A stretch of DNA of 42,379 nt from Escherichia phage aldrigsur. Within the stretch, counting starts at the first letter, position 1. Each line of letters begins with the position of its first letter. The stretch lies in the sequence record MN850592.1; one strand, 5' to 3'. Below, piece by piece: positions 1 to 42,379 of this stretch. The notes beneath the pieces were generated by a model, which saw nothing but the letters and a program-made list of their open reading frames with translations, was not told the origin of the DNA and ran no database searches. Position numbers and translations under genes: made by a program.

Positions 1-1942
1 CGGCGATAGCGCGACCGATACGGTCGGGGGCTACGTCAGCAGGCAAGCCGAGCATAGACTGAACAGTTTGGCCTCTCGGTGCGATAAGCACAGAGCCGGG
101 GCTGAATGTGGTTTCACCGACGCGCAGGACACGGTTGGCCAGCTTCGCAGATGCGAGTGCTTCCATACCATCCTTCGTCACGTTCGGGTTCTTGAGGACT
201 ACAGCTTGCAGCTCCTCGCGGTACGCAGCAGACACCTCCGACATTTCCTGCGCGGCAGTAATGTCACCAGATGCAACGCGTGCTTGGAACAGGTTCTGCT
301 GAGTATCTGAGAACAGACCAGCCAGACCCTGCCAAGTGCGAGAGAGGAAGCCCTGAGCCTCCAGCCCATTCACCACAGAGTTAACGTCAGATTGACGCTG
401 CGTGAGGATTTGAGATTTCTGTGCCGGGGTCAAGCCAGCGTAGTCCTGCTGCTGCTTGATGTAACCCTGACCAGCTTGGTCGATGGTGCGGCCAGCCTTA
501 ATCTGCTCGCGCATGTACACCATCTTCTCTTGGTTTTCTTCTGACAGACCTGACAGGAGCTTAGTCCATGCAGTCTTGTCACCCTGATTCTCGGCCACGG
601 TTACGCGGTCAATCAGCCCGGTTACGGTACGGGCAGCGTCAGGGTTCATTTCGTCAACAGTGCCGAAGTTCGACAGAGACGGCTCAATCAACTTGGCGGC
701 AGACTTGTACGCAGAGGGGAAGCCAGTCTGCGCACCCACTTGCAGCAGGTCGAATGCCACGGAACTTGCCGTCGCGCCCGGTTGCTTCATACGGGCCTTG
801 ATGAATGCGTCAGCACCATCCTGCTCACTCGCGCCCTGCTGGAGCATGTACGTCTGGTTCCCGGTGGCGTAAGCCTGACCGAGCTGGCTGGCCTTGGCTT
901 GCTTGGCGTAATCCTTGTAGAAGGACTCGATAGCGGAGCTGAAACCACCAGCGCTAATCAGCTTATTGTCCACCATCTGCTGGAGCGTCTGCGTGTACTG
1001 TTCCGGCGTAACGTCACCGAATACTGCCTGACGCGCATCAAGTTGACCCTTCTGCGCCAGCAGACCCATGTTGTCCTGCACCTCGGTACGAGACTTGGAT
1101 TCACGAATCTGACCTTGCAGCTTGGCTAAGTCGTCGGCAGGCAGCTCGTTGAACAGCCCGGAGTTCACAGCAGTCTCGACCGGGGTGCGCAAATCCTGCT
1201 GGAGCATCAGCCCCATCATGGAAGTCACCTGCGTCCGGCGAGTCTCCAGCGGCAGCTTGTCATCTGCCAGAATAGACTTGGCCCACGCCATGGTCGCAGC
1301 CGTAGCGTTAGCGTACGCGCCGCCATCACCAGTGGCCTTGGCCTGAGCCGCCAGAGTAACGAGAGTGTTACCCTGCGTGTTGTACATCGCCGCACGCTGC
1401 TCAACCAGATACTTGCCATGCTGGGCAGCCTGCGTACGGATAAGGGTGTTGCTGAACGTGAGCTGGTTCTCCAGCAGAGACTTACGCCCGTTCAGCGTCA
1501 TACCATCAGTGTTCTCGAACAGGCCAGTGGTCTTCTCGTCCACCACCTTCAAGAACTCGTCGGGTGCCATCTTCGCATACTGCGGCATGTTAGCCGAGAT
1601 GTCTGAGGCGACCTTCGCCATTTCCATTCGTTTGTACTGGTCGTTGTAACCAGCTTTCTGGAACTGAGCGGTAAGCCAGTTCGAATCCAAATCCTCGACA
1701 GCCTTGCCACTCGCGGCGGCGTTAGCCCCCTTTAGGTATTCTTCCTCGTTCGCACGCTCAGTGACACGGCCAGCAAGTGCGCTGGCCATGTTCAGTACGC
1801 GTTGAATGGACTCGGTAGGAAACGTGTCGATGCGAGTATCGCGGCCTGCGAGACTAAACGGAGTCTGCGCCTGCTGCACACTTGGTAATCCCTGCTGCGC
1901 AGCATTAAGGTTAGCGCCACGCTGGTCACGCATAGTAGCCAT
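1..1942 (-). CDS. Internal virion (core/ejection) protein B-like, N-terminal ~647 codons; gene runs off the window start
   Basis: ATG at 1942-1940 (minus) immediately after the TAA of the upstream gene; hand translation of the minus strand is open down to position 1; absent from ORF track only because no stop lies inside the window; position after tail tubular B and the small internal virion protein matches T7/phiKMV-like order. Confidence 0.65.
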   Translation of the reverse strand, partial: MATMRDQRGANLNAAQQGLPSVQQAQTPFSLAGRDTRIDTFPTESIQRVLNMASALAGRVTERANEEEYLKGANAAASGKAVEDLDSNWLTAQFQKAGYNDQYKRMEMAKVASDISANMPQYAKMAPDEFLKVVDEKTTGLFENTDGMTLNGRKSLLENQLTFSNTLIRTQAAQHGKYLVEQRAAMYNTQGNTLVTLAAQAKATGDGGAYANATAATMAWAKSILADDKLPLETRRTQVTSMMGLMLQQDLRTPVETAVNSGLFNELPADDLAKLQGQIRESKSRTEVQDNMGLLAQKGQLDARQAVFGDVTPEQYTQTLQQMVDNKLISAGGFSSAIESFYKDYAKQAKASQLGQAYATGNQTYMLQQGASEQDGADAFIKARMKQPGATASSVAFDLLQVGAQTGFPSAYKSAAKLIEPSLSNFGTVDEMNPDAARTVTGLIDRVTVAENQGDKTAWTKLLSGLSEENQEKMVYMREQIKAGRTIDQAGQGYIKQQQDYAGLTPAQKSQILTQRQSDVNSVVNGLEAQGFLSRTWQGLAGLFSDTQQNLFQARVASGDITAAQEMSEVSAAYREELQAVVLKNPNVTKDGMEALASAKLANRVLRVGETTFSPGSVLIAPRGQTVQSMLGLPADVAPDRIGRAIA

Positions 1943-1944
1943 GA

Positions 1945-2685
1945 TTAGCCCCCAAAGATTGAACCTGAGCCGTAGCCCATGTAACGATTTGATTGATACT
2001 GCGCAGGCACAGGGTTAAATTCCCCAGCCTTCTGCATCCAGTTAGTTGTTCCATAACTCGCTGTACTGGAGCCGAGGTTATCGAACGTTGACGCTGTAGC
2101 GCCAGCACTGCCGCTCTGTGTACCCGTACCCTTCGCACCCTCAGTCGGCATGTAGTCGAAGCTGGTCTGCGCGAGGCTCGAAGCAAACTGCATAGCAGAC
2201 ACGCCAATGGCGCGGCCCACAATCATGCTGTTGCTCGCTGGCTTCTGCGAATAACGCTGAGCTGCGACGGCGGTGTCGATGATGTCGTTGATACTGGTGT
2301 CGAGGTTCATCTCCTGAATCTGCTCATTGAACCGGGTCTGCGCTTGGCTTTCCTGATTCTGGCGGCTGATGTCCGTGACCGCCTCGTCCACAGAGGCACC
2401 TTCAATCCCGGCAGCGGCGGCATTGTTAATGCTCGCGCCGGATGCCCGGTTAGCTTCCTTGTTGATATTGTACAGGTCGGTGCCAGTCTGCTGCCGGAGC
2501 AGGCCGCGCTGGAGATTCACGGTGTTGATGCGCTGGCCCATTGCCTGCCACGTTTGCTTGTTCAGGCGTTCGTTCTCTGCCTGAACCGCCTTCATCTGCG
2601 CACGCTCTGCTCGTCCTTGAGCATAGGTGGTGATGAAGGAGTTCGTAGCGTCGGCACCAGCTTTAGCAAAAGCTGCCCAACCCAT
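1945..2685 (-). CDS. Internal virion protein A-like (small core protein), ~246 aa
   Basis: ORF track 1945..2730; preferred ATG at 2685 lies 1 nt after the tail tubular B stop and is preceded by GGAGA; synteny. Confidence 0.6.
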   Translation of the reverse strand: MGWAAFAKAGADATNSFITTYAQGRAERAQMKAVQAENERLNKQTWQAMGQRINTVNLQRGLLRQQTGTDLYNINKEANRASGASINNAAAAGIEGASVDEAVTDISRQNQESQAQTRFNEQIQEMNLDTSINDIIDTAVAAQRYSQKPASNSMIVGRAIGVSAMQFASSLAQTSFDYMPTEGAKGTGTQSGSAGATASTFDNLGSSTASYGTTNWMQKAGEFNPVPAQYQSNRYMGYGSGSIFGG

Positions 2686-2686
2686 A

Positions 2687-5131
2687 TTAAATTCTCCGAA
2701 CTTTGTTGTAGAACTTGATGTAGTAGCCAAGCCCCTGAATGTTCAGGTCGCCTGCCGTAGACGAATCCACGACCATGCTGCTGGACTCCACCTCAAGACC
2801 CATGCGAACCTTCAAGTGCGCACGCTTGGCCAACATCGCAGACCCCAGACCCAGCTCTTTACTGGTATACCGGATAGGGCTGCTGATGATGTTCAGTGCC
2901 GAGTACGCGCCCCGGTCGCTGGCCGTGATGTTGAACAGGCTCGTGTACCGCAACGTGAAGTTGTAGTGCATGATGACCATCTTGTTCACGTCCATGTACG
3001 AGCCGTCCTGATTGAACACACGCGGAGGCGTAGGGCTGAACAGGGCAGTGAATCGCAGGCCCACATACAGTGAGCTGCTGCCGTACGAAGGCTGGAGGTA
3101 CACGCGTCGGTTAGTGGTGTCGATGGACTTAACCCCGACCTCAGCCCCGATGTAGTTGCCAGACGGCACTACGTTCGTCATGAAATCCCAGTTGCCCTCA
3201 GTCTGGTAGCGGTACTGAATAATGTCCCACAGCGCCCTCTGCTCGCCAGTGGCAGCGAACTGAATGTACGAGCTGTCCGTGGCCGGGTTCGTCACAGTCA
3301 TCAACTGGGCGTAGTCAATGGCCGGGAGGAATCGCGCCGGGTCAGTCGGGTCAGGGGAGTCTCGCATGGACAGCGTGAGCAGGTTCATGTGGCCCTGTTG
3401 CTCAACCAAGAGCACCAGAACCTCACGGACGAACCACGCAGCCTGCACAGTCCCGTACACCTCCCAGCGATGCCACGAGGACAGAACCTTCTCGTCACCA
3501 GACCACAGGTACTCGTTCACGTAGAGCGTGGACTTCTCAGTGGTTGAGCCAAACACGACGATGTTGTTCGTGGTGCTGGCAGAGATATACGAGTTGGCCC
3601 CTTCCAGATAGGTCGGCAGGTGGTCGGTTACATCCTGACTCACGTACTGCAAATCCGTGTAGCCGGACGGCAGCATCTCCTTGATGGAGAATGAGCTGTT
3701 CGAGCGCGGGTACGCGTAATACAGGCTGCGGCCAGAGGTGGTCGGTGCTACGCCAGTGTCCATCTGGTACGTCGAGGTCAACACAGCAGTGGCGTTGTTC
3801 GGCGTAAGGATTTGGTTACGTCCGGGGATAACGGCTTGGTGTTCCTCACTGGCCAGAATCAGGTCAGAGTTGAACGGGATGCCATACCGGAACGATGCCC
3901 CGGCGAAGCTGGTTGCGGTGAACTCAATGCGGTCGTCGTCCAGTACCTGCGTCACAGTCGTACGGAAGAAGTTGGTTCTGTCTTCCTTGTTGCTGGAACC
4001 CATGGTAATGTACGGGCCGGAGAACACAATCAGGCGACCTTGGAACGAAGCCAGACCAGTGATACCCACACCATCAGCATCAGTGAATGCCGGGATTGAG
4101 TTGGTCTTGTCGTCGCCAGCCAGTCGGCCCGGCCATGAGCCTTGAGCGAACGTGTGCTGGTTGGTGGTCGAGGTCGTGCTGAATACCAGAGGCATAGTGC
4201 TTGGGTTAATCCCGGTCGGGGAACCCCACGCACCTTTCTCCACCCAGCGCGAGTTGGCGTAATCCCACTGGAAATACTGAGCGAAGCTGTCGTCGCCCAC
4301 GGTCATGATGAAGCCACCAGCCTGAGTCGGCAGACGCGCCGGGAGCTTGGTGGTCAGGTCGACGCGGTGAGTGTTCGACGCAATCGCATAGCTGGAACCA
4401 GTGTTGGTGGAGACGTTCAGGTCAGTGTACGCGGCAGTGGTCTGGAGGTACATGTACGCACCATCCACCTGCACAACCTCCAGCCCGGTAGCGCCGCCAA
4501 TGGCAGCGTCGAGCTGAGACTTCAACTGACCGATGATATATTCCGGCGTAGCCTTACCCGAAGCGCCTGTCTCGTCGGAGTTAGGTGTGGTGTAAGAGGC
4601 TGACACAGCGCCGCCGCTTGTTTCAACGCGAACGGTGTACTGCTTACCGTAGCCTCCGGCCAGCACAAAGTAGTAACCCCGGCGACCCGGATTCATACGC
4701 GTCTCGTTCTCCAGAAGCACGGGCAGCTTGGAGCAGTTGGCAACGTACATGGTGTTGCCTACGGTAGCGAACACGATGTCGTCGGGGTTGTTCGTGACGA
4801 GGTACGAGGACTGGCCCATGAACTGGACAGTCTCCGTCTCGACGATGGCGGTGACATACCCGGTCTTCGTATTCACGATGAACGTGGTGATGCCCCAGCC
4901 TAAGTTAGTGGTAGTGAATCGCAGGTGGCCGAAGTTACCAAGGCTCCAGACGTTCGCGTTAGTGGAATCCACAGTACGGTGCAGTCGGGTGCCGGGGCGT
5001 TTACGCAGGCCACGCACGGTGTCAGAGGTCATGTTGACCTGTTCCTCAACCTGCGATAGCTGGCGGTCAGTATAGACCTGCTGGCTCACGCCGCCGAGGA
5101 TGGATTTATAAGCGCCTTGGTATACTGGCAT
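2687..5131 (-). CDS. Tail tubular protein B (T7 gp12-like), 814 aa
   Basis: Size and position match T7 gp12 (~794 aa); start overlaps upstream stop (TAATG) with GGAGAGGA Shine-Dalgarno. Confidence 0.8.
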   Translation of the reverse strand: MPVYQGAYKSILGGVSQQVYTDRQLSQVEEQVNMTSDTVRGLRKRPGTRLHRTVDSTNANVWSLGNFGHLRFTTTNLGWGITTFIVNTKTGYVTAIVETETVQFMGQSSYLVTNNPDDIVFATVGNTMYVANCSKLPVLLENETRMNPGRRGYYFVLAGGYGKQYTVRVETSGGAVSASYTTPNSDETGASGKATPEYIIGQLKSQLDAAIGGATGLEVVQVDGAYMYLQTTAAYTDLNVSTNTGSSYAIASNTHRVDLTTKLPARLPTQAGGFIMTVGDDSFAQYFQWDYANSRWVEKGAWGSPTGINPSTMPLVFSTTSTTNQHTFAQGSWPGRLAGDDKTNSIPAFTDADGVGITGLASFQGRLIVFSGPYITMGSSNKEDRTNFFRTTVTQVLDDDRIEFTATSFAGASFRYGIPFNSDLILASEEHQAVIPGRNQILTPNNATAVLTSTYQMDTGVAPTTSGRSLYYAYPRSNSSFSIKEMLPSGYTDLQYVSQDVTDHLPTYLEGANSYISASTTNNIVVFGSTTEKSTLYVNEYLWSGDEKVLSSWHRWEVYGTVQAAWFVREVLVLLVEQQGHMNLLTLSMRDSPDPTDPARFLPAIDYAQLMTVTNPATDSSYIQFAATGEQRALWDIIQYRYQTEGNWDFMTNVVPSGNYIGAEVGVKSIDTTNRRVYLQPSYGSSSLYVGLRFTALFSPTPPRVFNQDGSYMDVNKMVIMHYNFTLRYTSLFNITASDRGAYSALNIISSPIRYTSKELGLGSAMLAKRAHLKVRMGLEVESSSMVVDSSTAGDLNIQGLGYYIKFYNKVRRI

Positions 5132-10236: not shown

Positions 10237-10250
10237 ACCGACAACTCTCC

Positions 10251-10442
10251 CTACAACCCAATGACACGTTCACGGATGAAGTCGATAACATCTTGTTTAC
10301 CAGCTTCTCTGTTAATCAGTGGCAGGTTGGTATCAGGGGTTACAGTCTTACCTACTGCCGCCCAAGTTCCGAAGTGTTTTTCCAGTAGAGCTAACTGAGC
10401 TTTAGTGAACGATACTCTTTCTAATGGAGATTCTTTACCCAT
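10251..10442 (-). CDS. Hypothetical protein, 63 aa
   Basis: ATG preceded by GAGAGG SD; first gene after the RNAP-downstream regulatory region. Confidence 0.45.
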   Translation of the reverse strand: MGKESPLERVSFTKAQLALLEKHFGTWAAVGKTVTPDTNLPLINREAGKQDVIDFIRERVIGL

Positions 10443-10490
10443 TACAATCCTCTCTTAGTGGCAGTAACCCCCGCCACTGACGGGGCTACC

Positions 10491-10526
10491 GGTAGCGTGA
10501 TACATATCACTATAGACACTTTCATA
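10491..10526 (-). promoter_or_regulatory. Composite conserved element (19-bp box TATGAAAGTGTCTATAGTG followed by palindrome TGATAcaTATCA) in the RNAP-downstream intergenic region; candidate phage promoter/operator
   Basis: Near-identical composite found in inverted orientation at 31190..31226; 19-bp box also at 24533..24551 and 10219..10237. Confidence 0.35.
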
Positions 10527-10553
10527 TAAGTCAATGATACATATCACTATTTA

Positions 10554-12986
10554 TCAGCAGAAAAACTTGCTTGATTGTTTCACAAGCTGGATGTCCAGAT
10601 TGCCACGTTCAGGTGGAACAGCATTGTATCTTACCGCAAGTTGTTGAATTGGGTCATGTTGCTCATACATCTGTACGAACTTTTCACGAATGACCTTATG
10701 CAGCAGACCAGCATGTGCCGCCGCAACACCGAACGAGTCATGGATGGATACCATGTACACCCCGTTATTCCACATCTCCCACAGCACCTTCATCATGTGG
10801 CTGGCATCCATGGCGTGTACGAAATTCGGAGCAATCGCAGCCGCACACTTCCGGCTATCCGGCTTGTCCAGATACTCGCGCAGCTTAATGCTGTGGATAC
10901 CCATGAGGTTGATGTTGTTGAGCATCGTCTCCTTGCTGGCTTGGTACAGGTTAACCACCCGCAACCCTGACGGCGCAATGATTTCTACGTACTCCCCGTT
11001 GGCTGCCGCCTCAACCGCGATAGCCTGCAACCATGCCATCAGCTCAGCCGCCTTCGGCACAACACGAGGGATTGCATTCCACATGAACTCTGCGATGAAC
11101 TGCGCACACTCCAGCAGGCTCTTGCCGTCCGGCAGCTTGACCCTGTTCTCACGCAGGTACAGGCAGTAGTAGTCAACCATACCGTGCCGGGTTGCCCCGT
11201 ACACGTAGGTCATCACTGGCTTCTTGGCCATAGCCCGAACGATGCCGATGCTAACAAGCCACGTACCCATCTGCGTCGGCGCTGTCGTCTCACTTTCTTC
11301 AAGAGCCTGCATTGCCGCTGCTGCCGTCTTGAGGTAAATGTCTGCCTTACGTCCGATGCTATTGATAAGATTGACAGCAGCACCGCCAACTTCATCTCGT
11401 AGCATGGCCGACAGGTGTTGTAGTCCTGAACATGTAGCGTCCCATTGTGTAACCACTCGGCAGGGATAAGTCTCAGGACTTCCTGAGTCGATAGCTCGAA
11501 TGAGTTCAACAGATGCAGCCCACGCGCTGACAGGGCTATCGGCCTCTGACCAGAACGAATCAAATGCCTCTGGAAGACGGCACGCCTCACGTAGTCGGGG
11601 GAGTGTTTTGTCCGTCCACGCTGCCCGGTCTTCGAAGTCTGTTGCGTCGTAGCCGAAGCAATTCGCAACATGTACCTTGAGCCAGAACAGCCCCTCACTT
11701 CCGAGAGCCACTGGTTCAGCAAGTTCGAGCAGCGCTCGCACTGCGTCGATGGACTGAGGGTTAAGGGTCGAAGAATAATAAATTCGGCCCCGTGTATCAG
11801 CGTAGGTCGGGAGGTATACCCTGTCATAATGCGCATAGCGCTCTGCCTCTTTGACTGCACCATTCAGCGCCAGCATCTGCGACGTGAACTTACGCAACTC
11901 ATTGTAATACAAGCGAGTCTTAACCTTGTACTCATGAGCCTCGGCATCCATCTGCTGCTGCATCTCTGGTGGGAACTTGCTGATGTACTGCGCGAAGCTG
12001 ACACCAGCCGGGATGGTGAATGGGAGCTTAGGCTCACGAGGCGGCACAGGCAGCCCCATAACGCCTGTACGGTTCGTTCTCAGGAACTCCAGTACCATTG
12101 GGTTAATTCGGTACGGAACGCTGCTGAGCATCATACACGGCTCTATAACAGGGGTCGGGTCAACGTTCAATGCACGATACCCTTTGTGGTTCATGCGACT
12201 CATTACCCGGTACATCGCCGCCTGCCCATCCGAGTGCCACATACCGCTGCGACCGTTCGGTGCAATCTGCTTCGGCGGGATAATCAACGGTGGGCAGCAC
12301 ATGCCATCAGCACGCGGCATGTCCAGCCAGTCGTTCATCGTAGCCAGCACATCCTCATGCAGTGCGAAGTGTGCCGTACCGCGCTGACGTTGGTTGCCGC
12401 CGACGCGAATCGTAGCCACCAACCCAGTTGGCTCCACGCACTTCATCATCAGCTTACCAATGGTAATCAGAGCACGCTGTGGCAGCACGTCAATCTCTAC
12501 CCCAACGTTCGCCGCCGACGCACGAGCTTTGTTGTAGACGTGGTTGGCCGACTTCGACCGGGACTTCTTAACGTCCTGCTTCACGCGCTCCATGTACGCT
12601 GCCTGCTGTGGCCCGGTCTGCTTCGCCCGGAGATACACCACCTCAGCCATCAGCGCTTTACCCATACTCTTGAGCAGACTCAGTACCGCCTGCTCCGACG
12701 CAGCACCGGACACCGCCATGCTCAATGCAAGAGAAGCACACGCCTTGGTGCCAATCTCACGCATGTACGTCCGGTACTGCGCACCGTACCCACGGGTCGT
12801 TTCGTTCAGGGTTTCTTGCATCGCAGCTTCGACAAGAGGATACGCCTCTACCATCATACGCTGGAGCAACGGCACCGACCCGGCCCGGCCACTGGCCATG
12901 GCTTCTTTGATATTGTCCAGCCAGCCCTCGCGGTGTCTGGCTCGTGCTTCTTCTTCAAGTCGAATCTGCTCAGCAAGTAAGTCCAC
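10554..12986 (-). CDS. Single-subunit DNA-dependent RNA polymerase (T7 gp1-like), 810 aa
   Basis: Recognisable T7 RNAP motifs: CSGLQHLSAMLRDEVGG (T7 CSGIQHFSAMLRDEVGG), FVHAMDASH, SIHDSFG. Confidence 0.95.
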   Translation of the reverse strand: MDLLAEQIRLEEEARARHREGWLDNIKEAMASGRAGSVPLLQRMMVEAYPLVEAAMQETLNETTRGYGAQYRTYMREIGTKACASLALSMAVSGAASEQAVLSLLKSMGKALMAEVVYLRAKQTGPQQAAYMERVKQDVKKSRSKSANHVYNKARASAANVGVEIDVLPQRALITIGKLMMKCVEPTGLVATIRVGGNQRQRGTAHFALHEDVLATMNDWLDMPRADGMCCPPLIIPPKQIAPNGRSGMWHSDGQAAMYRVMSRMNHKGYRALNVDPTPVIEPCMMLSSVPYRINPMVLEFLRTNRTGVMGLPVPPREPKLPFTIPAGVSFAQYISKFPPEMQQQMDAEAHEYKVKTRLYYNELRKFTSQMLALNGAVKEAERYAHYDRVYLPTYADTRGRIYYSSTLNPQSIDAVRALLELAEPVALGSEGLFWLKVHVANCFGYDATDFEDRAAWTDKTLPRLREACRLPEAFDSFWSEADSPVSAWAASVELIRAIDSGSPETYPCRVVTQWDATCSGLQHLSAMLRDEVGGAAVNLINSIGRKADIYLKTAAAAMQALEESETTAPTQMGTWLVSIGIVRAMAKKPVMTYVYGATRHGMVDYYCLYLRENRVKLPDGKSLLECAQFIAEFMWNAIPRVVPKAAELMAWLQAIAVEAAANGEYVEIIAPSGLRVVNLYQASKETMLNNINLMGIHSIKLREYLDKPDSRKCAAAIAPNFVHAMDASHMMKVLWEMWNNGVYMVSIHDSFGVAAAHAGLLHKVIREKFVQMYEQHDPIQQLAVRYNAVPPERGNLDIQLVKQSSKFFC

Positions 12987-29861: not shown

Positions 29862-30254
29862 TTACGCCTCCACTACCCAAAATTGTTCACCATCGTAAGT
29901 CCAAGCGGTGTGCTGCCCGGCTTCCATTTCGGCCTCTGTCTTGCTGACGAACTTGCCAGCAGGCTTGCCCGGATATGGTGAATCCATGAAGATTGCATCA
30001 TCATCTTTGGTCACTACCATGATGCAGTCCTGTTCGAATGCTTTACAGAACAGCTTAACAGCCTGCCTGATTTCGTAGATTCCATCGACAGGAAAGACCA
30101 TGCTTAACTCGTACGCATTGTCGAACTTGCCTGTCAGTGTGACCGGAACCACTCCGAACATATCCTGCACCGTTCGCAGTGCCTTGCAATGAAGCGCCAG
30201 ATTAACACATTCAGCGTTGCCCTGACGATATGCGCTTGCATAGATACGGTACAT
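29862..30254 (-). CDS. First early gene, hypothetical protein, 130 aa
   Basis: First ORF downstream of the tandem promoters; GGAGA SD. Confidence 0.55.
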   Translation of the reverse strand: MYRIYASAYRQGNAECVNLALHCKALRTVQDMFGVVPVTLTGKFDNAYELSMVFPVDGIYEIRQAVKLFCKAFEQDCIMVVTKDDDAIFMDSPYPGKPAGKFVSKTEAEMEAGQHTAWTYDGEQFWVVEA

Positions 30255-30711
30255 AGTTATTTCTCCAGTTGTTGGCTATTTTCAGGTGGATAGTGAACCC
30301 ATTGTGACGCGCCGTACATGTTGCACTAAGTGGCATTGATTGGCTTGTCGGATTCACTACCCTGAAAAATCGCCCCGCCCATTTCGCGCCGTGGATATTG
30401 TCTGCATCCACTCTCAGGAGTCCTCCAGCAGTCCGGCTCACCGTTACCAGCTTGCCTACCTACCCGCTTCACTCCGCGCCTTATAAGACGTTTGGGATTT
30501 TACTGATACTGCGCTGTGTCTATCGCGCTTCTCCGTTCCCTTGCATCAGGCACTACCCCTACGGCGTTAGCATTGTTGCGATACCGTTGCTTTTCAGCGA
30601 TGCCTCTCACCAGTTCCTAGCTGCGCCGGATACCCATGAGACCGTGACACTACGTGGCCAGTTTACGTTCACTCAGAGCAGGTTGTTTTGCAACCTTTCA
30701 ACTCGGTGCTG

Positions 30712-30740
30712 ATTACATCACATCGTATTCAGCGTGTCAA
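30712..30740 (-). promoter_or_regulatory. Sigma70-type early promoter A (TTGACA-17-TGTAAT)
   Basis: Minus strand: -35 TTGACA at 30740..30735, 17-nt spacer, -10 TGTAAT at 30717..30712. Confidence 0.55.
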
Positions 30741-30791
30741 CTACTTTTTACTTCTGACTGACTGGCTTGCTGCCCTGTCAATCTGGTGTGC

Positions 30792-30820
30792 ATTACAGCA
30801 TACTCATTTCATCCTGTCAA
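30792..30820 (-). promoter_or_regulatory. Sigma70-type early promoter B (TTGACA-17-TGTAAT)
   Basis: -35 at 30820..30815, -10 at 30797..30792; shares TATGCTGTAATGC context with promoter C. Confidence 0.55.
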
Positions 30821-30928
30821 CCGATTTAATCAGCGCCCGTTCTGAGATAATTAAACCGTACCAGTTCGCCTACGTGTGTTTTAACGTCTTTATCAATGAC
30901 TGTTTAGCTTGCTGGCTGACGTGGAAGC

Positions 30929-30957
30929 ATTACAGCATAGTGAGCTTGCCTTGTCAA
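30929..30957 (-). promoter_or_regulatory. Sigma70-type early promoter C (TTGACA-17-TGTAAT)
   Basis: -35 at 30957..30952, -10 at 30934..30929. Confidence 0.55.
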
Positions 30958-31034
30958 CACACCAGATTGTTAAAGAGCAGTGTTACCGTCCTACACCGTC
31001 CAACACGTTGACGCTGTGTTGTCCGGCGAGATGA

Positions 31035-31063
31035 ATTACAGCAAATAGCGAATACCTTTGCAA
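31035..31063 (-). promoter_or_regulatory. Sigma70-type early promoter D (TTGCAA-17-TGTAAT)
   Basis: -35 TTGCAA at 31063..31058, -10 at 31040..31035; weaker -35. Confidence 0.4.
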
Positions 31064-31189
31064 GTATTATTTTCAAGAAATGTGATAAGTGTATGTAATC
31101 ATTAGGATTAAAGTTTGATTAGATAATCATAACACTGGATAGAATACCGTTATCAGATAGGTTATAAGTTACTGTAATCATTAGATAAT

Positions 31190-31226
31190 TATGAAAGTGT
31201 CTATAGTGATATAGTATCGCTAGATA
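31190..31226 (+). promoter_or_regulatory. Inverted copy of the composite element (TATGAAAGTGTCTATAGTG + TGATAtagTATC palindrome) at the boundary of the AT-rich and T-depleted regions
   Basis: Same composite as minus-strand 10491..10526, here on plus strand. Confidence 0.35.
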
Positions 31227-31230
31227 CGCA

Positions 31231-31620
31231 GAGCGAGCGCGGCGCAGCCGAAACAAGCGAGCGCCGAACGGATGACGGATGGCAGACCGTAGGACTGACA
31301 GACGGCAGACAGTGAAGGCAGTAGGACAGTAACAGCAGGTAGCAGAGCATGACGCGCAGAGCTGGCAGGCGCAGACAGTAGACCAGCACACCACACAGCA
31401 CCACGCCGCACACCGCTACACACCAGCACCACGAAAAGAGACAGATACCCGCACGACCACGCGCAGCACACAGCACCACACAGCCAGCGCAGAGCGTCCC
31501 CAATAGGACAGCACCACACCGCCACCGATAGCCCACACAGCAGGCACACAGCCAGCCAGCAGGACAGCACCACGCGGCGAGTGATGAAACGCGACACGCA
31601 CGAGCTATACCGCACGCAGG
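31231..31620. repeat. Strand-asymmetric block (plus strand ~5% T) with degenerate short repeats (ACAGCACCAC x4, GACAG-type); candidate terminal-repeat/packaging region
   Basis: Composition counted directly; lies between last late gene (stop 31810) and early promoters, where genome ends of T7-like phages map. Confidence 0.4.
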
Positions 31621-31809
31621 CAATCCTCTTGACGCGCCGCGCAACGCACGCGAGACAATATCGCGCACGTCGCGAGGCTAATCCGCGCACACGTCATGGG
31701 GGTACGCGCGGTCATTTGGGTCGAGGGAGGGGCAACCATAAACATGCAATTTTCAAGCCGGGGGTATTGCTCCACACGGCCTGTTCAATGCTCCAGCTTT
31801 CGATAGCCC

Positions 31810-32346
31810 CTACAGCGTCGCACAGTAGTCGCTACAGCGTTTTGCACGAGCTACCAAGGCATCCCTATACCGAACGATTGTCGGGGCTGTAGAAGCCTTT
31901 AGGAACGCAATACGAAGGTCACAGATGGCTGCTGCTGCGGAGTGAGGTTCCAGACGTTTGGCTGCTGCCACGGTAGCAGGGCCAATAACCCCGTCCTGTG
32001 CAACACCGCATACCCGCTGTAGAGCTTTCGCCGCACGGGAGACACCTGAGTTAACGCCGTAGTCGAACACGGCACATGCAATCGCAGGGTGAAGCTCGTC
32101 ACCTCGGATGGGGCTGTAGTAGTCCCGTCGATAGATAGCTTCGGCTTGTGCTTTGGTGAGGTCGCGGATAGGCACACAAATAGTGCCGCCAAGCCCAGTA
32201 GGGACACCGCAAGCTCTACCATCCAGCTTTCCATCACGAGCGTCACTAATTCCATGATTCGTTTCCCCTCCGGTGTCGCCGGGCAGGTTGGCGTAACCGC
32301 CTTCTGCCAGCCCGGTGAACCGCATACAGATTTCAAAGTTAGTCAT
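31810..32346 (-). CDS. Endolysin, GH108-type lysozyme with C-terminal peptidoglycan-binding domain, 178 aa
   Basis: N-terminal AEGGYANLPGDTGGETNHGI (GH108 EGGY..GGETN.GI signature) and C-terminal DGVIGPATVAAAKR (PG_binding_3-like); no signal or SAR segment. Confidence 0.75.
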   Translation of the reverse strand: MTNFEICMRFTGLAEGGYANLPGDTGGETNHGISDARDGKLDGRACGVPTGLGGTICVPIRDLTKAQAEAIYRRDYYSPIRGDELHPAIACAVFDYGVNSGVSRAAKALQRVCGVAQDGVIGPATVAAAKRLEPHSAAAAICDLRIAFLKASTAPTIVRYRDALVARAKRCSDYCATL

Positions 32347-33402: not shown

Positions 33403-34071
33403 TTAAGAGAGGGTGATGCCAGTGATAACGCCACCAGCGACAGTGAAGGTTACAGTGTCGGTGTAAGTGCCAGTCACCGGAACCTGTAGTGCAGCGGCGT
33501 TAGCCACAGCAGCGATAGTTGCAGGGAAGGTGCCGTACGAGATTACCCCGTTGGACACAGTAAACGTGGCGTTGGCGATAGCCGTACCCGCAGAGTTGCG
33601 GATTTGGATACCGTTACCGCTGGAGATACAGGCCACCGTCGCCGGGAGCCGGGCTGCCAGCAGCACGCCGTTGGTGTTCACGAAGGAAGTGGACGTAATG
33701 CCAGCGGCACCGTTCACGTTCTGCACAGAGATTGAATCACCGTTGGACTTCATACCGACAGTCACCGGGAATCGAATCTGATAAGTAGAGCCATCAACCT
33801 CAACCGTACCCGACTTGGACACAGTGCCGTCTTGGTTCACTACAGTCGCTGTAGCGCCGTCTGCGACGATTACTGAGCCTTCCGGTACGGAACTATACCC
33901 AGCCGCTTCCAACGCTGTCATGAGCTGCTGGATGGCCGTGTCGATGTCAGCAGCCTGAGCTGCCGTGATAGTGGTCGTGTTGTTCACGAAACGCTGCGTA
34001 AGGTTCGCAGCAATGTTGGCGCGGTAGCCGATGTCATACCGCTGTTGGTCAGTGATGGAAATCAAGGACAT
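33403..34071 (-). CDS. Hypothetical Gly/Thr/Ala/Val-rich protein (beta-rich, fibre/adhesin-like), 222 aa
   Basis: Start overlaps terminase stop (TAATG); composition suggests beta-sandwich/fibre-like fold. Confidence 0.5.
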   Translation of the reverse strand: MSLISITDQQRYDIGYRANIAANLTQRFVNNTTTITAAQAADIDTAIQQLMTALEAAGYSSVPEGSVIVADGATATVVNQDGTVSKSGTVEVDGSTYQIRFPVTVGMKSNGDSISVQNVNGAAGITSTSFVNTNGVLLAARLPATVACISSGNGIQIRNSAGTAIANATFTVSNGVISYGTFPATIAAVANAAALQVPVTGTYTDTVTFTVAGGVITGITLS

Positions 34072-35831: not shown

Positions 35832-36136
35832 TAGTGCATCATCCCGCTATCTTCTGCGATTGAGTTAATGGCAGCGGTCATAATATCCTTACGACCTGCC
35901 TCGGTCTTTTCGTTATTCAGTTGCTCTTGCAGCGCCAGCAGGTCATCTGCGTGGTCTTTGTCAGCCTGAATACCGTTGTCTTTCAGGAACTGGCGAAGTA
36001 CGGACAGCTCAGCCGCCGCCATAGGTTCGATGATGTTACCATGTTCATCTTTCCTACGAGCGTCGGCCAAGCGGTCGGACAGATACTCCACCAGCATCCG
36101 GTGCAGCCCGTCGAGCTGCTTGTTCACGGATGCCAT
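35831..36136 (-). CDS. Terminase small subunit (T7 gp18-like), 101 aa
   Basis: Small helical protein directly upstream of and overlapping the large subunit. Confidence 0.6.
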   Translation of the reverse strand: MASVNKQLDGLHRMLVEYLSDRLADARRKDEHGNIIEPMAAAELSVLRQFLKDNGIQADKDHADDLLALQEQLNNEKTEAGRKDIMTAAINSIAEDSGMMH

Positions 36137-36145
36137 GGTTTCTCC

Positions 36146-38518
36146 TTAGATGTAAGCCACCGGGTATGTAGCGGCGAGCTGCGTCCCAGCAGGGATAGCA
36201 GTCACCAGCGGCGGTGTGATGTCAATGCGCACCGGGTTCCCGATGTTGTTATCCACCTGATACGGCGCACGCACTACGGTTACAGTGAGCGCACCACCAC
36301 TCGGCCCTGCGCCCGGCACCTGTAGGCGAGTACCAGCCGAGATAGGCTTATGGTACAGCCACGATGTAGACGCCTGAGTACCAGCCGGAGTCAGGTTCTG
36401 CTCCAGATACGTCTGGCCAGCGGCAGCAGCACGCACCTTGAAGTTGTTGCCATCATCGGGGATGTAGGCACCAAACCGGGTTACGATGAAGTTGCCACCT
36501 GAGCCGTCAGTCTTGAGCAGCACAGTGCCTTCCGGCAGCTCTTTGCCAGTAGGGAACTCATTCCCGTCCAGCGTAGCGAGGTCGTTCGGCAGAGTGTAGA
36601 TGCGGTTGACTGGTGACAGGATGACACCCACGTTACCTTGGATATTGGTGTACGGGATAGCACGCACGTTGGAGTTCAGCGTGCTAATGTCAGAGTACCG
36701 AGCCTTACTGTACAGCGCACCCTCGGTCATGCCCGGCCCGTAGAAGTTCACGTTCACCATGTTCAGGCACGTCTTCTTACGCGGGTACACACCGTTGGAT
36801 GAAGTACCACCACTGGAGTCATCGCCAACAGCGTCGAACACGACACCAGTAACGTTGGTCATATTCAGCAGAGTAGCCACACCGAACAGCGTCATCTTGT
36901 AACAGTGAATGTTTTCAAGGTGATATGTGTTAGTGTTGGTGTCATCTGAGCCTACGCCAGCATAGAAGCGCCCGGTACGGGTCTGTACGTTGCGCACGGT
37001 CATGTCGAAGGATGGACATGCAGCGCCCGGCGTACCGCCAGCACCTGCTTGGTTGGCACCCCACTCCAGCATAACGAGACGAATATCGTTAGGGGAGGTT
37101 GAACCAGTGTTGATAGGCTCACCCACCACACCGTCAATGGTCATGCGTTTGCAGCCGTACGTGATTACGCCAGCAGCAGACAGGCCAGTACCAGTGGACA
37201 CGGACAGGTCAGGGTTACAGACCACGTTCTCGCACACGCTGTCGCGGGTAACTTCGAAGTGGACAACCTGACGTACACCGCGCGGAGCATGGACGTTACG
37301 CACGGTCACGTTCTTCGCGTACTGAGTCTCAGCAGCGTCCCAACCGAACGGGCCTTGACCAGCGATACCGATACCGATGCCCCAGTTGGACAGTGGAATA
37401 GGTGCGTTGGTGCCGTCGATATTCTCAAGGTAGATGTTCTCAATCAGCAGGCCACCGTCATAGTGCTTGTTGATTACGTTCATCTCAATACCATCACCCA
37501 TCATATCCATCATAGCGACGTTGCGGATAATGCCGTTGGTGATAGCCTCACCAGTACCTTGTTGCAGAATACCGAACTTGCCGTTGCGGTGGATACCGTT
37601 CTCGATTACGTAGCTGCCCCCGGCGATGTTGCCTTGGAACAGGATTGACGTAACCTTGGAGTTGCTCGGCGCACTGGTGAACTCATAGTCAGCAATGCGA
37701 ACCTTGCCACCCCAGTACGCCACGCGCACAGTGGATGCCTTGAAGTTGCGGAACGTTGAATCAATCAGTCGAATATCTGCCTTACCGTGCCACGTACCGC
37801 CGACGACCTCAATACCATCCATCGTCACCGTGGAGTCCACAGTGCCTTCCCAGCCGCGTGCATCCACAACCTTACCGTTTGCCTTGGCATAGTCGAAACA
37901 TGCCTGCACAGCGGCAGCGATGGACGCATAGCCAGTGTTGTTGGTGAACTCTGACAGACACACAGTGTCCTGACGGTCGAGGAATGTGCCACCGCCAAGG
38001 GTGCCAATCCACTTACCGCCGTCATTCATCGCCAGCGCAATGGCCAGAGCTGAGTCAGGAATATCAACCAGAGGAATCATGAACGGCTGGCCAGCGTTGT
38101 CAAAGCCCAATGCCTTGTTACGGCGGCCAGCGACGTTCGGTAATGCGTTGATGGAGACTTCGGAGTTCGGGACACGGACTGCGCGGTCAAGTGGCGCGAG
38201 CCATGCCTCCTGAGTTTCCTCAGCCTTAAACAGAATCTGCTCGAAGTTCTCGTCGAGGTTGCTGCCCGTGAAGGCAGCGTCCTGACCGAACTTGTTAAGC
38301 AGCGTCTCAGAGGTGTAGCGTTGCAGGCGTACGATTGTTCCGGCGACAGGTGCCGTCGAGAAGACAATCTGCTTGGTCACAGAGTTGTAGGTGTACCCTT
38401 CCGTCACGAGGGTGGAGTTGAGGTACACCTGAATCTGCGTAAATACGCGCTGCTCAAAGGTGACGAGGAACGCAGTCTGCGTCCCGTTCGCCACGTAGGT
38501 GTTATAGCTGTTCGCCAT
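36146..38518 (-). CDS. Tail fibre/tailspike with T7 gp17-like N-terminal adaptor and beta-helix body, 790 aa
   Basis: N-terminus MANSYNTY...DENFEQILFKAEETQEAW resembles T7 gp17 N-terminal domain; central region has repetitive N/V/G/T beta-helix-like rungs. Confidence 0.8.
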   Translation of the reverse strand: MANSYNTYVANGTQTAFLVTFEQRVFTQIQVYLNSTLVTEGYTYNSVTKQIVFSTAPVAGTIVRLQRYTSETLLNKFGQDAAFTGSNLDENFEQILFKAEETQEAWLAPLDRAVRVPNSEVSINALPNVAGRRNKALGFDNAGQPFMIPLVDIPDSALAIALAMNDGGKWIGTLGGGTFLDRQDTVCLSEFTNNTGYASIAAAVQACFDYAKANGKVVDARGWEGTVDSTVTMDGIEVVGGTWHGKADIRLIDSTFRNFKASTVRVAYWGGKVRIADYEFTSAPSNSKVTSILFQGNIAGGSYVIENGIHRNGKFGILQQGTGEAITNGIIRNVAMMDMMGDGIEMNVINKHYDGGLLIENIYLENIDGTNAPIPLSNWGIGIGIAGQGPFGWDAAETQYAKNVTVRNVHAPRGVRQVVHFEVTRDSVCENVVCNPDLSVSTGTGLSAAGVITYGCKRMTIDGVVGEPINTGSTSPNDIRLVMLEWGANQAGAGGTPGAACPSFDMTVRNVQTRTGRFYAGVGSDDTNTNTYHLENIHCYKMTLFGVATLLNMTNVTGVVFDAVGDDSSGGTSSNGVYPRKKTCLNMVNVNFYGPGMTEGALYSKARYSDISTLNSNVRAIPYTNIQGNVGVILSPVNRIYTLPNDLATLDGNEFPTGKELPEGTVLLKTDGSGGNFIVTRFGAYIPDDGNNFKVRAAAAGQTYLEQNLTPAGTQASTSWLYHKPISAGTRLQVPGAGPSGGALTVTVVRAPYQVDNNIGNPVRIDITPPLVTAIPAGTQLAATYPVAYI

Positions 38519-41500
38519 TATTCGCCCTTAACTGCTTCGTTGAGTGCTCGGACACCCGGCACAATGGAGATTAGTGGGAGAGCCTGAATGATGTTCCCGG
38601 CAGCCTTGCGAGCGTCATGCCCGGCTTGGTCGATGTCACCAGTAGCCAGACTCCCTGCTGTAGCAGAGGTGGCCCCAGCGATACCGTACAGGCGGTCGAG
38701 GAACAGCAGGCCCGGCGCACCGAAGCTGCGCTGCTGCCCGGTCAGTACACCAGTGAACTCAGAGGCGAAGCCAATAGCACCAAGATAGTTCAGTGCCTGA
38801 CCTGCCAGTTTGTTCGGTGCCATAGTGTCCGGGTCAGAGAATGCCTTGCCGGAGATGACGTTGTTGGCAGCAGTGGCCATCATCGCCAGCGGGTACTGGT
38901 ACGCCATCAGCGTAGCCAGACCACGCGCACCCTCGCGATTCCAAGTACCAACCAGCGTCTTGTTGTGCGTAGCCGCGACGAAGCGACGGAACGTAAACAG
39001 GAACTTACCGAGGGTACTGAACTCTGCGAAAGCAGGCAGCTCACCTACACGAGCGCGAACAATAGCGTCATCCATGGCGTTCATCATGACGATGCGAGAG
39101 CGATTGAACACCCCTTCATCCCAAGCGTCAGGCTTGGTGCCATGAGTACCAACCTGCTTGCGAATGTCAGCCAGCAGCGCATCGTTGGCCCCGTAGGTTT
39201 TCATGGCTGCAATAGCCTTGGCATCACCTTCGGCTGCCTTGCGCAGCGTCTGCATCACGAGCGCAGCGTTGGTTCGAGTCTGGTGGAAGTGGATGTATTT
39301 CTGCATGTTGATGAACATCGTGGCATCGCGCAGGTGTTCCATACGCATGACCCACGGCGACTTATCCGCAGAGAACATGTCGTCATAGTGCTGCATGATT
39401 GGGCGCATACGAATATCACTCGCAACCGCCGCAGTCAGAGCTTCCTCGGCATCAAGTGCCAACTGACGACCTTCCTTAGTAGACACCCTCATTTGCTTAA
39501 ATAGTGCGCGTGCTTCGGGAATTGTACGCATCATGGCGCGAAACGTATTGACTGCCCCGAAACGTTGCATCATCGTGCCGTATTCCACCAACTGCCACAG
39601 ACCAGATGCAGCCAGACCAGTGGCCTGAGTCAGCGCCGACAACTGACGCATGAACTCCGGCATCTCCTCACCAACAGGAGCACCTTGGTAGTAGGCCATG
39701 ATGTTGTCGTACTGGTCGAGAGCCTTGCGGCGTGCAGTGCTGTCCGGGATAGATTTGGCCAGAGCCTCGCGAGCAGCAGCTCGTTCAGCGTCAGTACCCA
39801 ATCCAGCCTCGTGCAGAGCCAGTCGCCCAGTAATGCGTCGGTTATAGCTGTCCATCATACTGGTGATGCTGTCATCGAACAGGTCACGCACCTGCAAGTT
39901 AGGGCCAAGCGTGTGCATCATGTCGATGTTGATACGGCTCTTAAGCATTGACGGTCTACCAGCGTCCGAGCCAGACTCACGAAGGAGCGCTGACGCACGG
40001 GCCTTGGCAGCCTCGTCCATACCTTTCGTGTTCGCGATGATTTCGAGTAATTCATCACGACCCTCCTTGTTGATAATCATCCCGGAGTTGTCGATACCAT
40101 AACCCTTACGACGAGCACGCTCAACCATAGCGTGGGCAATGACGTTGGCAGTCGGACGGTCAGTACCGATACCGCGCTGCACAGCAGTCGTCATCTGCTT
40201 CATGAATGGTTTCTTGCCGAGCAACTGCTCAGCCTGCTCAATCTTGGTCACGTTCATCCGGCGCGGGTAGTAGTACGGGTTCTTCTCAACGAAGCCCGGT
40301 TCAACCATACCCTTGTTCTCCAGCTCACGGCCAACGGCACGGGAGTATTCCCCCAGTCGGTCGGCAGCGTTGGCCACATTTGGGTTAGCGCCTTTGAAAC
40401 TGGGGTCAATCATACGCTTATCCAGCTCCAGACGCACAGCAGCTTCAAACTCCTGCTGCGCCCGGCGATAGCCTACCGGGTCGCGGAAGCGCCGGATGTT
40501 GCTCCAGCCATCAGCGTTCAGGGCGTTGCGCAGTGTATCCTCATACTGGTTCAGCAACACACCAAAGCGAGCCTGAGTCTCGCGCTGGATAGACGCAGCG
40601 GAGGTCATGTTCGGATTCAGTGGGTCGTCCAGCAGTCGCCCGGCCAGAGCACTTGATTCATCAGAGTGCTGGCTGAAAGACTTGAACAGTGACCACTCAA
40701 GGAACGGACGCTTAGGGTTGGTCTGCTCACCACGGCGTGCGAGGTCGAGTCCACGCTGAGCCGTAGCCCGGATGGATTCAGGAACCTCGTCAACGACAGC
40801 GGCACCGCGTGGGCCAACACCGAGCGACATCGCCAGCGGCGACATAGCATTGTTCGGGTCGAACTGCGGCGGGTTGTTGGGGTCGATACCGTTACGGCGC
40901 TGCATCTCAGCAGCGAACTCCTCCGGCGACAGTTCATCAAGGCGACGAGCTGGCGCGGCGGCGGGACGATAGAATGCGGTGGTGGCCGCCCCGTGCAGGG
41001 CAGCCGCGAAGATAATCTCGTTCTGAGACACTGGGCGTGCTTCGTTACCCACCGCTGTCATAGTGGCAGCAGTTGAAGCTGCACCGACAGCGGCGGTTCC
41101 GAGGCGACCTAATTTCAGGGCAGTGCCTGCTCCCATCGAGAGCAGGTCGGTGGCGAGATACAGCGGGTCAGCGAATTGCAGAACCGCGTTCATCACCGGG
41201 GCAGTGTGAGCCAACTGGGTACGCTCACGCATCTCTTGGAGCTGCTGGGTACGCCAGTTGAACTCGTCCATGGATTTGGATTTGAACAGGAACGTCCGGT
41301 CATCTGCACCCACCGGGAACTGTACGTTCTGCAATGCCTCGTTGGGCTTGAAGTCCGGGTCAGCTTGGAAGGTGGGCTTGTTGAACGCGGCATCAAAGAG
41401 CTGGGTGGTGTCCCAGTTCTTCACAGAAGCACTCAACGCCGTGGCCATCGGAGTTGCTTCCAGTTCCTGCATCTTGTCGAACTGCTCGACGGCACCCTGA

Positions 41501-41628
41501 CGAGTGGCATCTTGCAGTGGAGTGCTGAGGTCAGCAGTCTTTACGGGAGCTGGAATAACCAGCGAGGGAGCGTTGGCCCCCTGCTTGGGAGCCATGAACT
41601 TGTCGAGCGATTCTTGTGTGATAATCAT
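38518..41628 (-). CDS. Internal virion protein C-like (large core/ejection protein, T7 gp16 analogue), 1036 aa
   Basis: Size and position between internal virion protein B and tail fibre. Confidence 0.7.
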   Translation of the reverse strand: MIITQESLDKFMAPKQGANAPSLVIPAPVKTADLSTPLQDATRQGAVEQFDKMQELEATPMATALSASVKNWDTTQLFDAAFNKPTFQADPDFKPNEALQNVQFPVGADDRTFLFKSKSMDEFNWRTQQLQEMRERTQLAHTAPVMNAVLQFADPLYLATDLLSMGAGTALKLGRLGTAAVGAASTAATMTAVGNEARPVSQNEIIFAAALHGAATTAFYRPAAAPARRLDELSPEEFAAEMQRRNGIDPNNPPQFDPNNAMSPLAMSLGVGPRGAAVVDEVPESIRATAQRGLDLARRGEQTNPKRPFLEWSLFKSFSQHSDESSALAGRLLDDPLNPNMTSAASIQRETQARFGVLLNQYEDTLRNALNADGWSNIRRFRDPVGYRRAQQEFEAAVRLELDKRMIDPSFKGANPNVANAADRLGEYSRAVGRELENKGMVEPGFVEKNPYYYPRRMNVTKIEQAEQLLGKKPFMKQMTTAVQRGIGTDRPTANVIAHAMVERARRKGYGIDNSGMIINKEGRDELLEIIANTKGMDEAAKARASALLRESGSDAGRPSMLKSRINIDMMHTLGPNLQVRDLFDDSITSMMDSYNRRITGRLALHEAGLGTDAERAAAREALAKSIPDSTARRKALDQYDNIMAYYQGAPVGEEMPEFMRQLSALTQATGLAASGLWQLVEYGTMMQRFGAVNTFRAMMRTIPEARALFKQMRVSTKEGRQLALDAEEALTAAVASDIRMRPIMQHYDDMFSADKSPWVMRMEHLRDATMFINMQKYIHFHQTRTNAALVMQTLRKAAEGDAKAIAAMKTYGANDALLADIRKQVGTHGTKPDAWDEGVFNRSRIVMMNAMDDAIVRARVGELPAFAEFSTLGKFLFTFRRFVAATHNKTLVGTWNREGARGLATLMAYQYPLAMMATAANNVISGKAFSDPDTMAPNKLAGQALNYLGAIGFASEFTGVLTGQQRSFGAPGLLFLDRLYGIAGATSATAGSLATGDIDQAGHDARKAAGNIIQALPLISIVPGVRALNEAVKGE

Positions 41629-42379
41629 TCCTGCATACCTGCGAGTAGAGTTTGGACGTAATACTGCTTACGCTCGTCCTGCGACAGCTTATAAGCCGGG
41701 GTCGCAGCCAGAGCCTGCACAGCTTTCTCTTGGTCGCCAACACGGATTGCATCAGCCAGTTTGCTGTACGCACCATCGGTACGATACCAGCTTGAACCTG
41801 CCTGATAACCCATCTGCATCATGAACTGGAACTGGGCATCGTTATCACGACTCCACCCCAGTGCAGCAGCAGTGCCGGGCATCTGCCGGGCTACCATGTT
41901 GGTGTGTTGCACGAACGTATCGTGGATAGTTCGCGGCGACCACTCAGTACCGCCTTTCATACCAGACGCTTGGCCTTGGGCAAAGTACGGGCTACGGTCG
42001 GAGATACCGACACCGTTAGTCTGTACGCCAGTGCTGTCGCGGTAGGTGCTGCTGCGGATACCTTCGAAGTCAATCAGTTTGCCACGGGCAACAAGCATAC
42101 GCTGCTCGTCTACCCCCGCAGTATTAACGCCATTCACGCGGATACCCACGTTACTGGTCTTATCAACAAAGAGTTTCCCGTCGCCATACACTTCGTTGTT
42201 GGCAGTGGCTGCTGCACGGTCGTCTTCACGGATGCGTTCCTGCACGAGCTGCGGCAGAATGCGTACCGAGTTCGGGGAAACGTCACCTTGCTTATTGAAG
42301 AACTGAACATTCAGAGAGCCATCTGGCATAAACGAGTAGGACGACTCGAAGCCTTCTGGTGCCTTGGTCTGGTCAAGTG
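41625..42379 (-). CDS. Internal virion protein B-like, C-terminal part (same gene as 1..1942 if the sequence is circular)
   Basis: Minus-strand frame open from the window end to stop at 41625; frame is continuous with the ORF ending at position 1 (joint codon GCA from 42378-42379 plus 1). Confidence 0.65.
   Translation of the reverse strand, partial: LDQTKAPEGFESSYSFMPDGSLNVQFFNKQGDVSPNSVRILPQLVQERIREDDRAAATANNEVYGDGKLFVDKTSNVGIRVNGVNTAGVDEQRMLVARGKLIDFEGIRSSTYRDSTGVQTNGVGISDRSPYFAQGQASGMKGGTEWSPRTIHDTFVQHTNMVARQMPGTAAALGWSRDNDAQFQFMMQMGYQAGSSWYRTDGAYSKLADAIRVGDQEKAVQALAATPAYKLSQDERKQYYVQTLLAGMQE

Follow-up and report, generated by a model that had tools for sequence, protein, structure and literature searches.

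Phage J8-65 (NC_025445), the type species of the genus Bonnellvirus, was deposited in canonical orientation, with both 259-bp copies of its terminal repeat and with no gene split by the ends of the record. The two ends are identical direct repeats annotated as repeat regions, the record starts at the repeat, and the right copy lies 73 nt after the endolysin stop; the J8-65 paper gives no account of how the repeat was determined. Direct terminal repeats are characteristic of phiKMV-like phages according to a preprint from the depositors of phage aldrigsur, which also describes an excess read abundance in noncoding end regions and gives the size of the repeat only as "a few hundred bp". For the phages of that study, including aldrigsur, Nextera XT libraries were sequenced and the reads were assembled de novo in CLC and SPAdes, and the similarity of aldrigsur to J8-65 was given as 71.9% (Olsen et al., 2020). 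The published text makes no mention of termini, a terminal repeat, PhageTerm or the term circular, and contains no termini analysis.

Phage records that have been opened at an arbitrary point are already known, and it is nothing unusual for the shotgun assembly of a terminally redundant podophage genome to be linearised arbitrarily. Bonnellvirus phage LF82-23 (42,378 bp) came out of SPAdes as a circle, and its record starts at the small terminase gene; the records of Kc261 and Lidtsur begin with the first-gene ATG, and those of usur, BHUENT7 and megetsur were opened at yet other points. Here we show that the aldrigsur record is cut inside a structural gene, and we conclude that it is very probably an arbitrarily opened, reverse-complemented whole-genome record with its real ends at a repeat located at approximately 31724-31459.

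Genome organization and relatives

The window, by which we mean the whole stretch of aldrigsur DNA (MN850592) that was analysed, comprises 42,379 nt with a GC content of 55.73%. Judged by its sequence, it is the complete genome of a lytic E. coli podophage of the genus Bonnellvirus, reverse-complemented and rotated compared to the conventional map. Bonnellvirus groups Autographiviridae-type podophages whose genes follow the phiKMV arrangement. All long ORFs in the ORF list are located on the minus strand, and once the window is circularised, 90.2% of it is taken up by minus-strand ORFs with a minimum length of 100 aa. After reverse-complementing and rotation, the window was collinear from end to end with J8-65, glasur and Kc261 and, more distantly, with LIMEzero, and in each of these four genomes one long HSP crosses the window junction. 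The collinear HSPs show 75-88% identity and cover positions 675-40722 of J8-65 except for the variable early genes; J8-65 diverges from aldrigsur in its early genes and inside its repeat. The initial annotation had described the window as a circularly permuted whole genome. The collinearity and the ORF coverage uphold a complete and rotated record, whereas the permutation is a property of the record and not of the packaged DNA; by analogy with the genus, the packaged DNA should end at fixed points and carry a short direct terminal repeat.

From the SAMase to the endolysin, the genes are arranged as in J8-65. The first early gene (29862..30254, minus strand) belongs to the SAM-dependent methyltransferase/anti-restriction SAMase family (PHROG 2226) and corresponds to J8-65 gp01, while the endolysin gene (31810..32346, minus strand; PHROG 315) is, by the gene order of J8-65, the last gene at the right end of the canonical map. 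In between, also on the minus strand, lie the single-subunit RNA polymerase (RNAP) gene at 10554-12986 (PHROG 414, matched over residues 1-810), which is followed by the structural module, and the genes of the terminase large subunit (34071-35831; PHROGs 17672/38) and small subunit (35831-36136; PHROG 891). Thus, all three criteria for Bonnellvirus are found in the window, namely a single coding strand, an RNAP gene beside the structural genes, and similarity to J8-65 together with its gene order. Aldrigsur furthermore resembles the T7- and phiKMV-type podophages in its unidirectional genes, its single-subunit RNAP, its terminase pair, the circular closure of the assembly and the position of the predicted repeat, which follows the last late gene and precedes the early host promoters. 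It differs from T7 in that the RNAP gene of T7 lies in the early region, whereas that of aldrigsur has the position typical of the phiKMV arrangement. A prophage, a plasmid and a true circular replicon were also considered as sources of the window and were ruled out by the lytic Autographiviridae-type gene content and the collinearity with relatives that have linear genomes. Searches of the whole window found neither tRNA genes nor any Rfam family that reached the gathering threshold, and a tandem-repeat scan of the window added nothing.

A gene divided between the two ends of the record

Direct translation of the minus strand showed that an ATG at 1942 opens a frame that is free of stops down to position 1. 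When 42379..41625 was appended, the frame was kept and an ORF of 898 aa was obtained, with a length of 2,697 nt including the stop, which ends at 41625. The 5' part of the gene (1..1942, minus strand) holds codons 1-647 and the first base of codon 648, and the 3' part (41625..42379, minus strand) supplies the other two bases of this codon, followed by codons 649-898 and the stop. Window positions 1, 42379 and 42378 make up the junction codon, GCA (Ala648). Joining the ends and translating in this way reproduced all coordinates of the initial annotation, as well as its junction codon and both of its lengths.

Two ends will join in frame by chance alone in one of three cases, and the real evidence for the junction therefore comes from homology. 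In a profile search, residues 1-898 of the joined protein matched positions 2-905 of the 908 positions of PHROG 2083 (E = 2.8e-211). A tblastn search of 50,697 phage records identified approximately 20 relatives with uninterrupted genes that span residues 1-898 at 63-98% identity and unchanged length; these homologs show no gap at residue 648, and the joined length of 898 aa equals theirs. An intact 898-aa homolog with 89.3% aa identity is present in J8-65. At the DNA level, a junction query of 2,000 nt, consisting of the last 1000 and the first 1000 bases of the window, gave a single contiguous alignment in 16 independent records (86-94% identity) and aligned to altidsur at 98.5% identity through the junction, with both sides of equal length. 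The window contains 0 N, and its last and first bases do not overlap.

The chance of one in three is also what could be said in favor of an incomplete contig, in which the in-frame join would be coincidental and sequence would be missing or duplicated between the two ends. We consider this practically excluded, as the joined protein has exactly the 898 aa of its homologs and is gapless at residue 648, as the 16 genomes and altidsur align through the junction with equal lengths on each side, and as the window shows no terminal overlap and carries a full gene complement collinear with J8-65. The earlier proposal that a single gene is split by the window ends is thus borne out by the in-frame translation, the match to PHROG 2083, the tblastn search and the junction DNA alignments. 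There is no biological event at the junction, and the split gene is an artefact of the record.

The split gene is the middle one of a block of three internal virion protein genes, in the same order as gp37-39 of J8-65. Its upstream neighbour (1945..2730, minus strand; PHROG 4295) has its stop 2 nt before the ATG at 1942, which is the spacing of gp37 and gp38 in J8-65. The downstream neighbour (38518..41628, minus strand) encodes an internal virion protein of 1036 aa with an endolysin domain (PHROG 342), and its ATG overlaps the stop of the split gene by 4 nt (ATGA, 41625-41628), as is the case for gp38 and gp39 of J8-65.

Phage altidsur (MN850568), also a Bonnellvirus, is the nearest deposited relative of aldrigsur, with 97.7-98.5% nucleotide identity in the regions compared, consistent with the published identity of 97.1% (Olsen et al., 2020), and with 99.9% aa identity over residues 1-800 of the split gene. 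It originates from the same study and method, and its record of 42,197 nt is likewise cut inside the 898-aa gene, but at residue 800 and in the opposite deposit orientation. The break of the altidsur record corresponds to window positions 41920|41921, which are contiguous in aldrigsur, and altidsur is contiguous across the break of aldrigsur. Since each record is unbroken at the break of the other, aldrigsur and altidsur close each other reciprocally. In the altidsur annotation (MN850568, 1-1500 and 39000-42197), a 91-aa fragment is named "internal head protein", and two spurious "hypothetical proteins" on the opposite strand overlie the remaining 800 codons of the 898-aa gene.

The 898-aa internal virion protein

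By its profile match, the joined protein is assigned to the phiKMV-type "internal virion lysozyme motif" proteins (PHROG 2083; phiKMV gp36-like) and is a predicted virion/ejection protein. The likeness to this family and to a solved "Internal virion protein" (9sfd/9sfn) consists of the match over the full length of the profile, the shared length of 898 aa with the solved chain, and the location between two other internal virion proteins; the solved chain aligns to residues 43-844 and hence spans the junction. As a difference, the match of the aldrigsur protein to the Pfam domain Phage_lysozyme (PF00959) at residues 751-871, a weak lysozyme-like region within the 3' part of the gene, scored 18.2 bits and falls under the curated cut-off of 22.3 bits. 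Because the aldrigsur record was opened inside this structural gene, the full-length protein is missing from the protein databases, and an exact look-up among approximately 15 billion public proteins did not return the joined 898-aa sequence, nor with it a second assembly of aldrigsur that would bear out the junction at every base.

Predicted physical ends and terminal repeat

The initial annotation had proposed that the true ends lie elsewhere, in the noncoding region at 30.3-31.8 kb, and this is supported by a homolog of the J8-65 repeat at approximately 31724-31459. The motif at the left boundary of the repeat, CCTCCC|TCGACCC, occurs once per genome in all 12 genomes compared, 72-86 nt past the endolysin stop. 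TCGACCC begins at 31724 on the minus strand of the window and the endolysin gene ends at 31810, while in the alignment of the 12 genomes the last base of the J8-65 repeat aligns to 31459. A single, collapsed direct terminal repeat of 266 bp (31459..31724, minus strand; 64% GC) is thus predicted, with the left physical end at 31724. The window contains a single homolog of the repeat, and with one copy in the record, the virion DNA is predicted to be longer by approximately 266 bp, corresponding to approximately 42.6 kb. By homology, the predicted left boundary is firm. The right boundary, at approximately 31459, is approximate, because conservation between J8-65 and aldrigsur is poor inside the repeat and the alignment is gapped. 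A direct blastn search with the 259-nt repeat of J8-65 gave no match in the window, and the repeat was placed only by pairwise alignments anchored in the flanking sequence and by the 12-genome alignment. The altidsur record has an annotated "repeat_region" of 41 nt that falls inside the predicted terminal repeat and is a short local feature.

In principle, the identical contig ends of J8-65 could be an assembler overlap rather than a repeat; against this, they are found at a motif conserved throughout the genus and in the expected intergenic site. A related question is whether aldrigsur has fixed, repeated ends at other coordinates within 30.3-31.8 kb, with a repeat that is shorter, longer or extended toward 31.2 kb. 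Inside the repeat, the window departs strongly from J8-65, among other things by a 29-nt insertion that only altidsur shares, an A-poor, GT-rich tract continues to approximately 31215, and the statement on repeat size in the preprint is a loose one, all of which would agree with shifted limits. On the other hand, all 12 genomes carry the left motif unchanged and with constant spacing to the end of the endolysin gene, and a block conserved in the genus begins exactly where the repeat of J8-65 ends, and we therefore regard shifted limits as unlikely.

Headful packaging, in which the DNA would be truly circularly permuted and have no unique ends, would likewise account for the circular behavior of the assembly, which is also seen with headful phages. 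This explanation appears highly improbable to us, since the type species J8-65 was deposited with defined ends and a 259-bp repeat, the depositors noted an excess of reads over the noncoding end region, direct terminal repeats count as a phiKMV-like trait, and the boundary motifs are conserved.

Opening of the record within a gene

Preferring fixed ends at the repeat at 31724-31459, we infer how the record was assembled, and also that aldrigsur has this repeat and where exactly it begins and ends. The virion DNA would be linear with a short direct terminal repeat, and in a short-read assembly the two copies of such a repeat would merge into one, whereby the assembly graph would close as a circle. 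Software would then cut this circle at an arbitrary point, which in the case of aldrigsur would have fallen within codon 648 of the 898-aa gene, and the true ends would be located at the repeat, between the endolysin gene and the cluster of host promoters that would drive the early genes.

The main value of the finding lies in curation, as the junction itself holds no new biology. If the record were re-oriented to begin at the predicted left end (31724, minus strand) and a second copy of the repeat were added, the gene would be restored and the map would become comparable with that of J8-65.

Two further records deserve mention. Position 1 of the glasur record (MN850583) is the first base of the 23-nt element described below (TATCACTATAG...), suggesting that the assembler broke the glasur circle at this inverted repeat. 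For Kc261 (MW250275), the genome size is 42,203 bp in the paper and 42,432 nt in GenBank, a difference of 229 nt, and the record, which begins at the first-gene ATG, has no terminal repeat.

The region next to the predicted left end

To the right of the predicted repeat, the window presents the layout expected of a left end, with an A-poor tract, a 23-nt element, four promoters and the first gene starting at 30254. Immediately adjacent to the repeat lies the block GGTCGTGCGGGTATCTGTCTCTTTT (31434..31458, minus strand), which is conserved in the 12-genome alignment and begins at the first base past the predicted repeat. It contains T-ATCTGTC-TCTTTT, with the heptamer and the preceding T at 31447-31440, and TCTCTTTT comes after the heptamer. 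In the class II (concatemer-junction) pause signal of T7, the heptamer ATCTGTT is strictly conserved and follows an A, C or T, and any base change in it abolishes termination by T7 RNAP. The aldrigsur block resembles this signal in six of the seven heptamer bases, in the T tract and in the analogous position beside the repeat; the heptamer of J8-65, ATCTATC, agrees in five of seven bases, and the strict heptamer is thus found in neither phage. Because T7 RNAP strictly requires the heptamer, we regard the block as a lead based on resemblance and not as a member of the class II signals.

The A-poor tract (31740-31215) contains 8% A in gene orientation and spans the predicted repeat and 250 nt beyond it. 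It holds long spurious ORFs, such as 31201-31668 and 31220-31690, and the equivalent stretch has been annotated with "hypothetical proteins" in other records (forsur_28, glasur_55, QQM15444 of Kc261, XMR00743 of HHU8 and gp21-24 of ROV85).

Further toward the first gene, four putative sigma-70-type early promoters with an extended -10 (TTGACA-N14-TGnTGTAAT; 30712..31063, minus strand) point to the early genes. The motif was derived from the repeat family D3, and its four matches compare to 0.21 expected by chance. A generic sigma-70 scan of 30200-31900 returned no promoters, as the -10 hexamer of these four is TGTAAT. The leader between the early promoters and the first-gene ATG at 30254 is approximately 450 nt and thus unusually long.

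An inverted promoter-like element

The 23-nt element next to the predicted left end (31190..31212, minus strand) resembles a phage promoter and is inverted relative to its twin at 10504..10526 on the plus strand, which lies 28 nt downstream of the RNAP stop. Among the exact inverted repeats of the window, this pair (ATATCACTATAGACACTTTCATA) is the longest, and the same pair of 23-mers also ranks first in length among the inverted repeats of every Bonnellvirus genome examined. The two copies co-vary between genomes, with versions containing TAGACAC, TAGTCAC or TAGTAGC, and J8-65 carries the version CACTACAG. In gene orientation, the copy on the RNAP side is similar to the "putative phage specific promoter" that the LIMEzero annotation gives for this place, and LIMEzero also has a perfect inverted copy near its left end (636-655). 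A leftward-pointing, promoter-like copy just inside the left repeat and directed toward the terminal repeat is hence found in two genera. In T7, all promoters point rightward.

A tentative and rather doubtful idea, which we favor little, is that in Bonnellvirus and Waewaevirus the inverted, co-varying promoter-like copy approximately 250 nt inside the left repeat, together with the abutting pause-like motif, could serve transcription by the phage RNAP across the repeat during replication initiation or concatemer processing. If true, the ends of phiKMV-type phages would have an architecture unlike that of T7, and the split gene would still be an artefact.

In the interval from the RNAP stop to the next gene (10440-10553, minus strand), the RNAP-side 23-mer is flanked by the two copies of a local direct repeat, ATAGTGATATGTATCA, which are spaced 36 nt apart. 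The repeat is followed by a GC-rich, hairpin-like sequence, GCCCCGTCAGTGGCGGGGG, that has no T tract. Weaker copies of the promoter-like motif are present at the early/middle boundary. The start of a 139-aa gene near 10238 (ATGAAAGTGTCTAC...) resembles the motif with 6 mismatches in 23 positions, and a like resemblance is seen at the start of J8-65 gp30 (19869); both of these may be coincidence.
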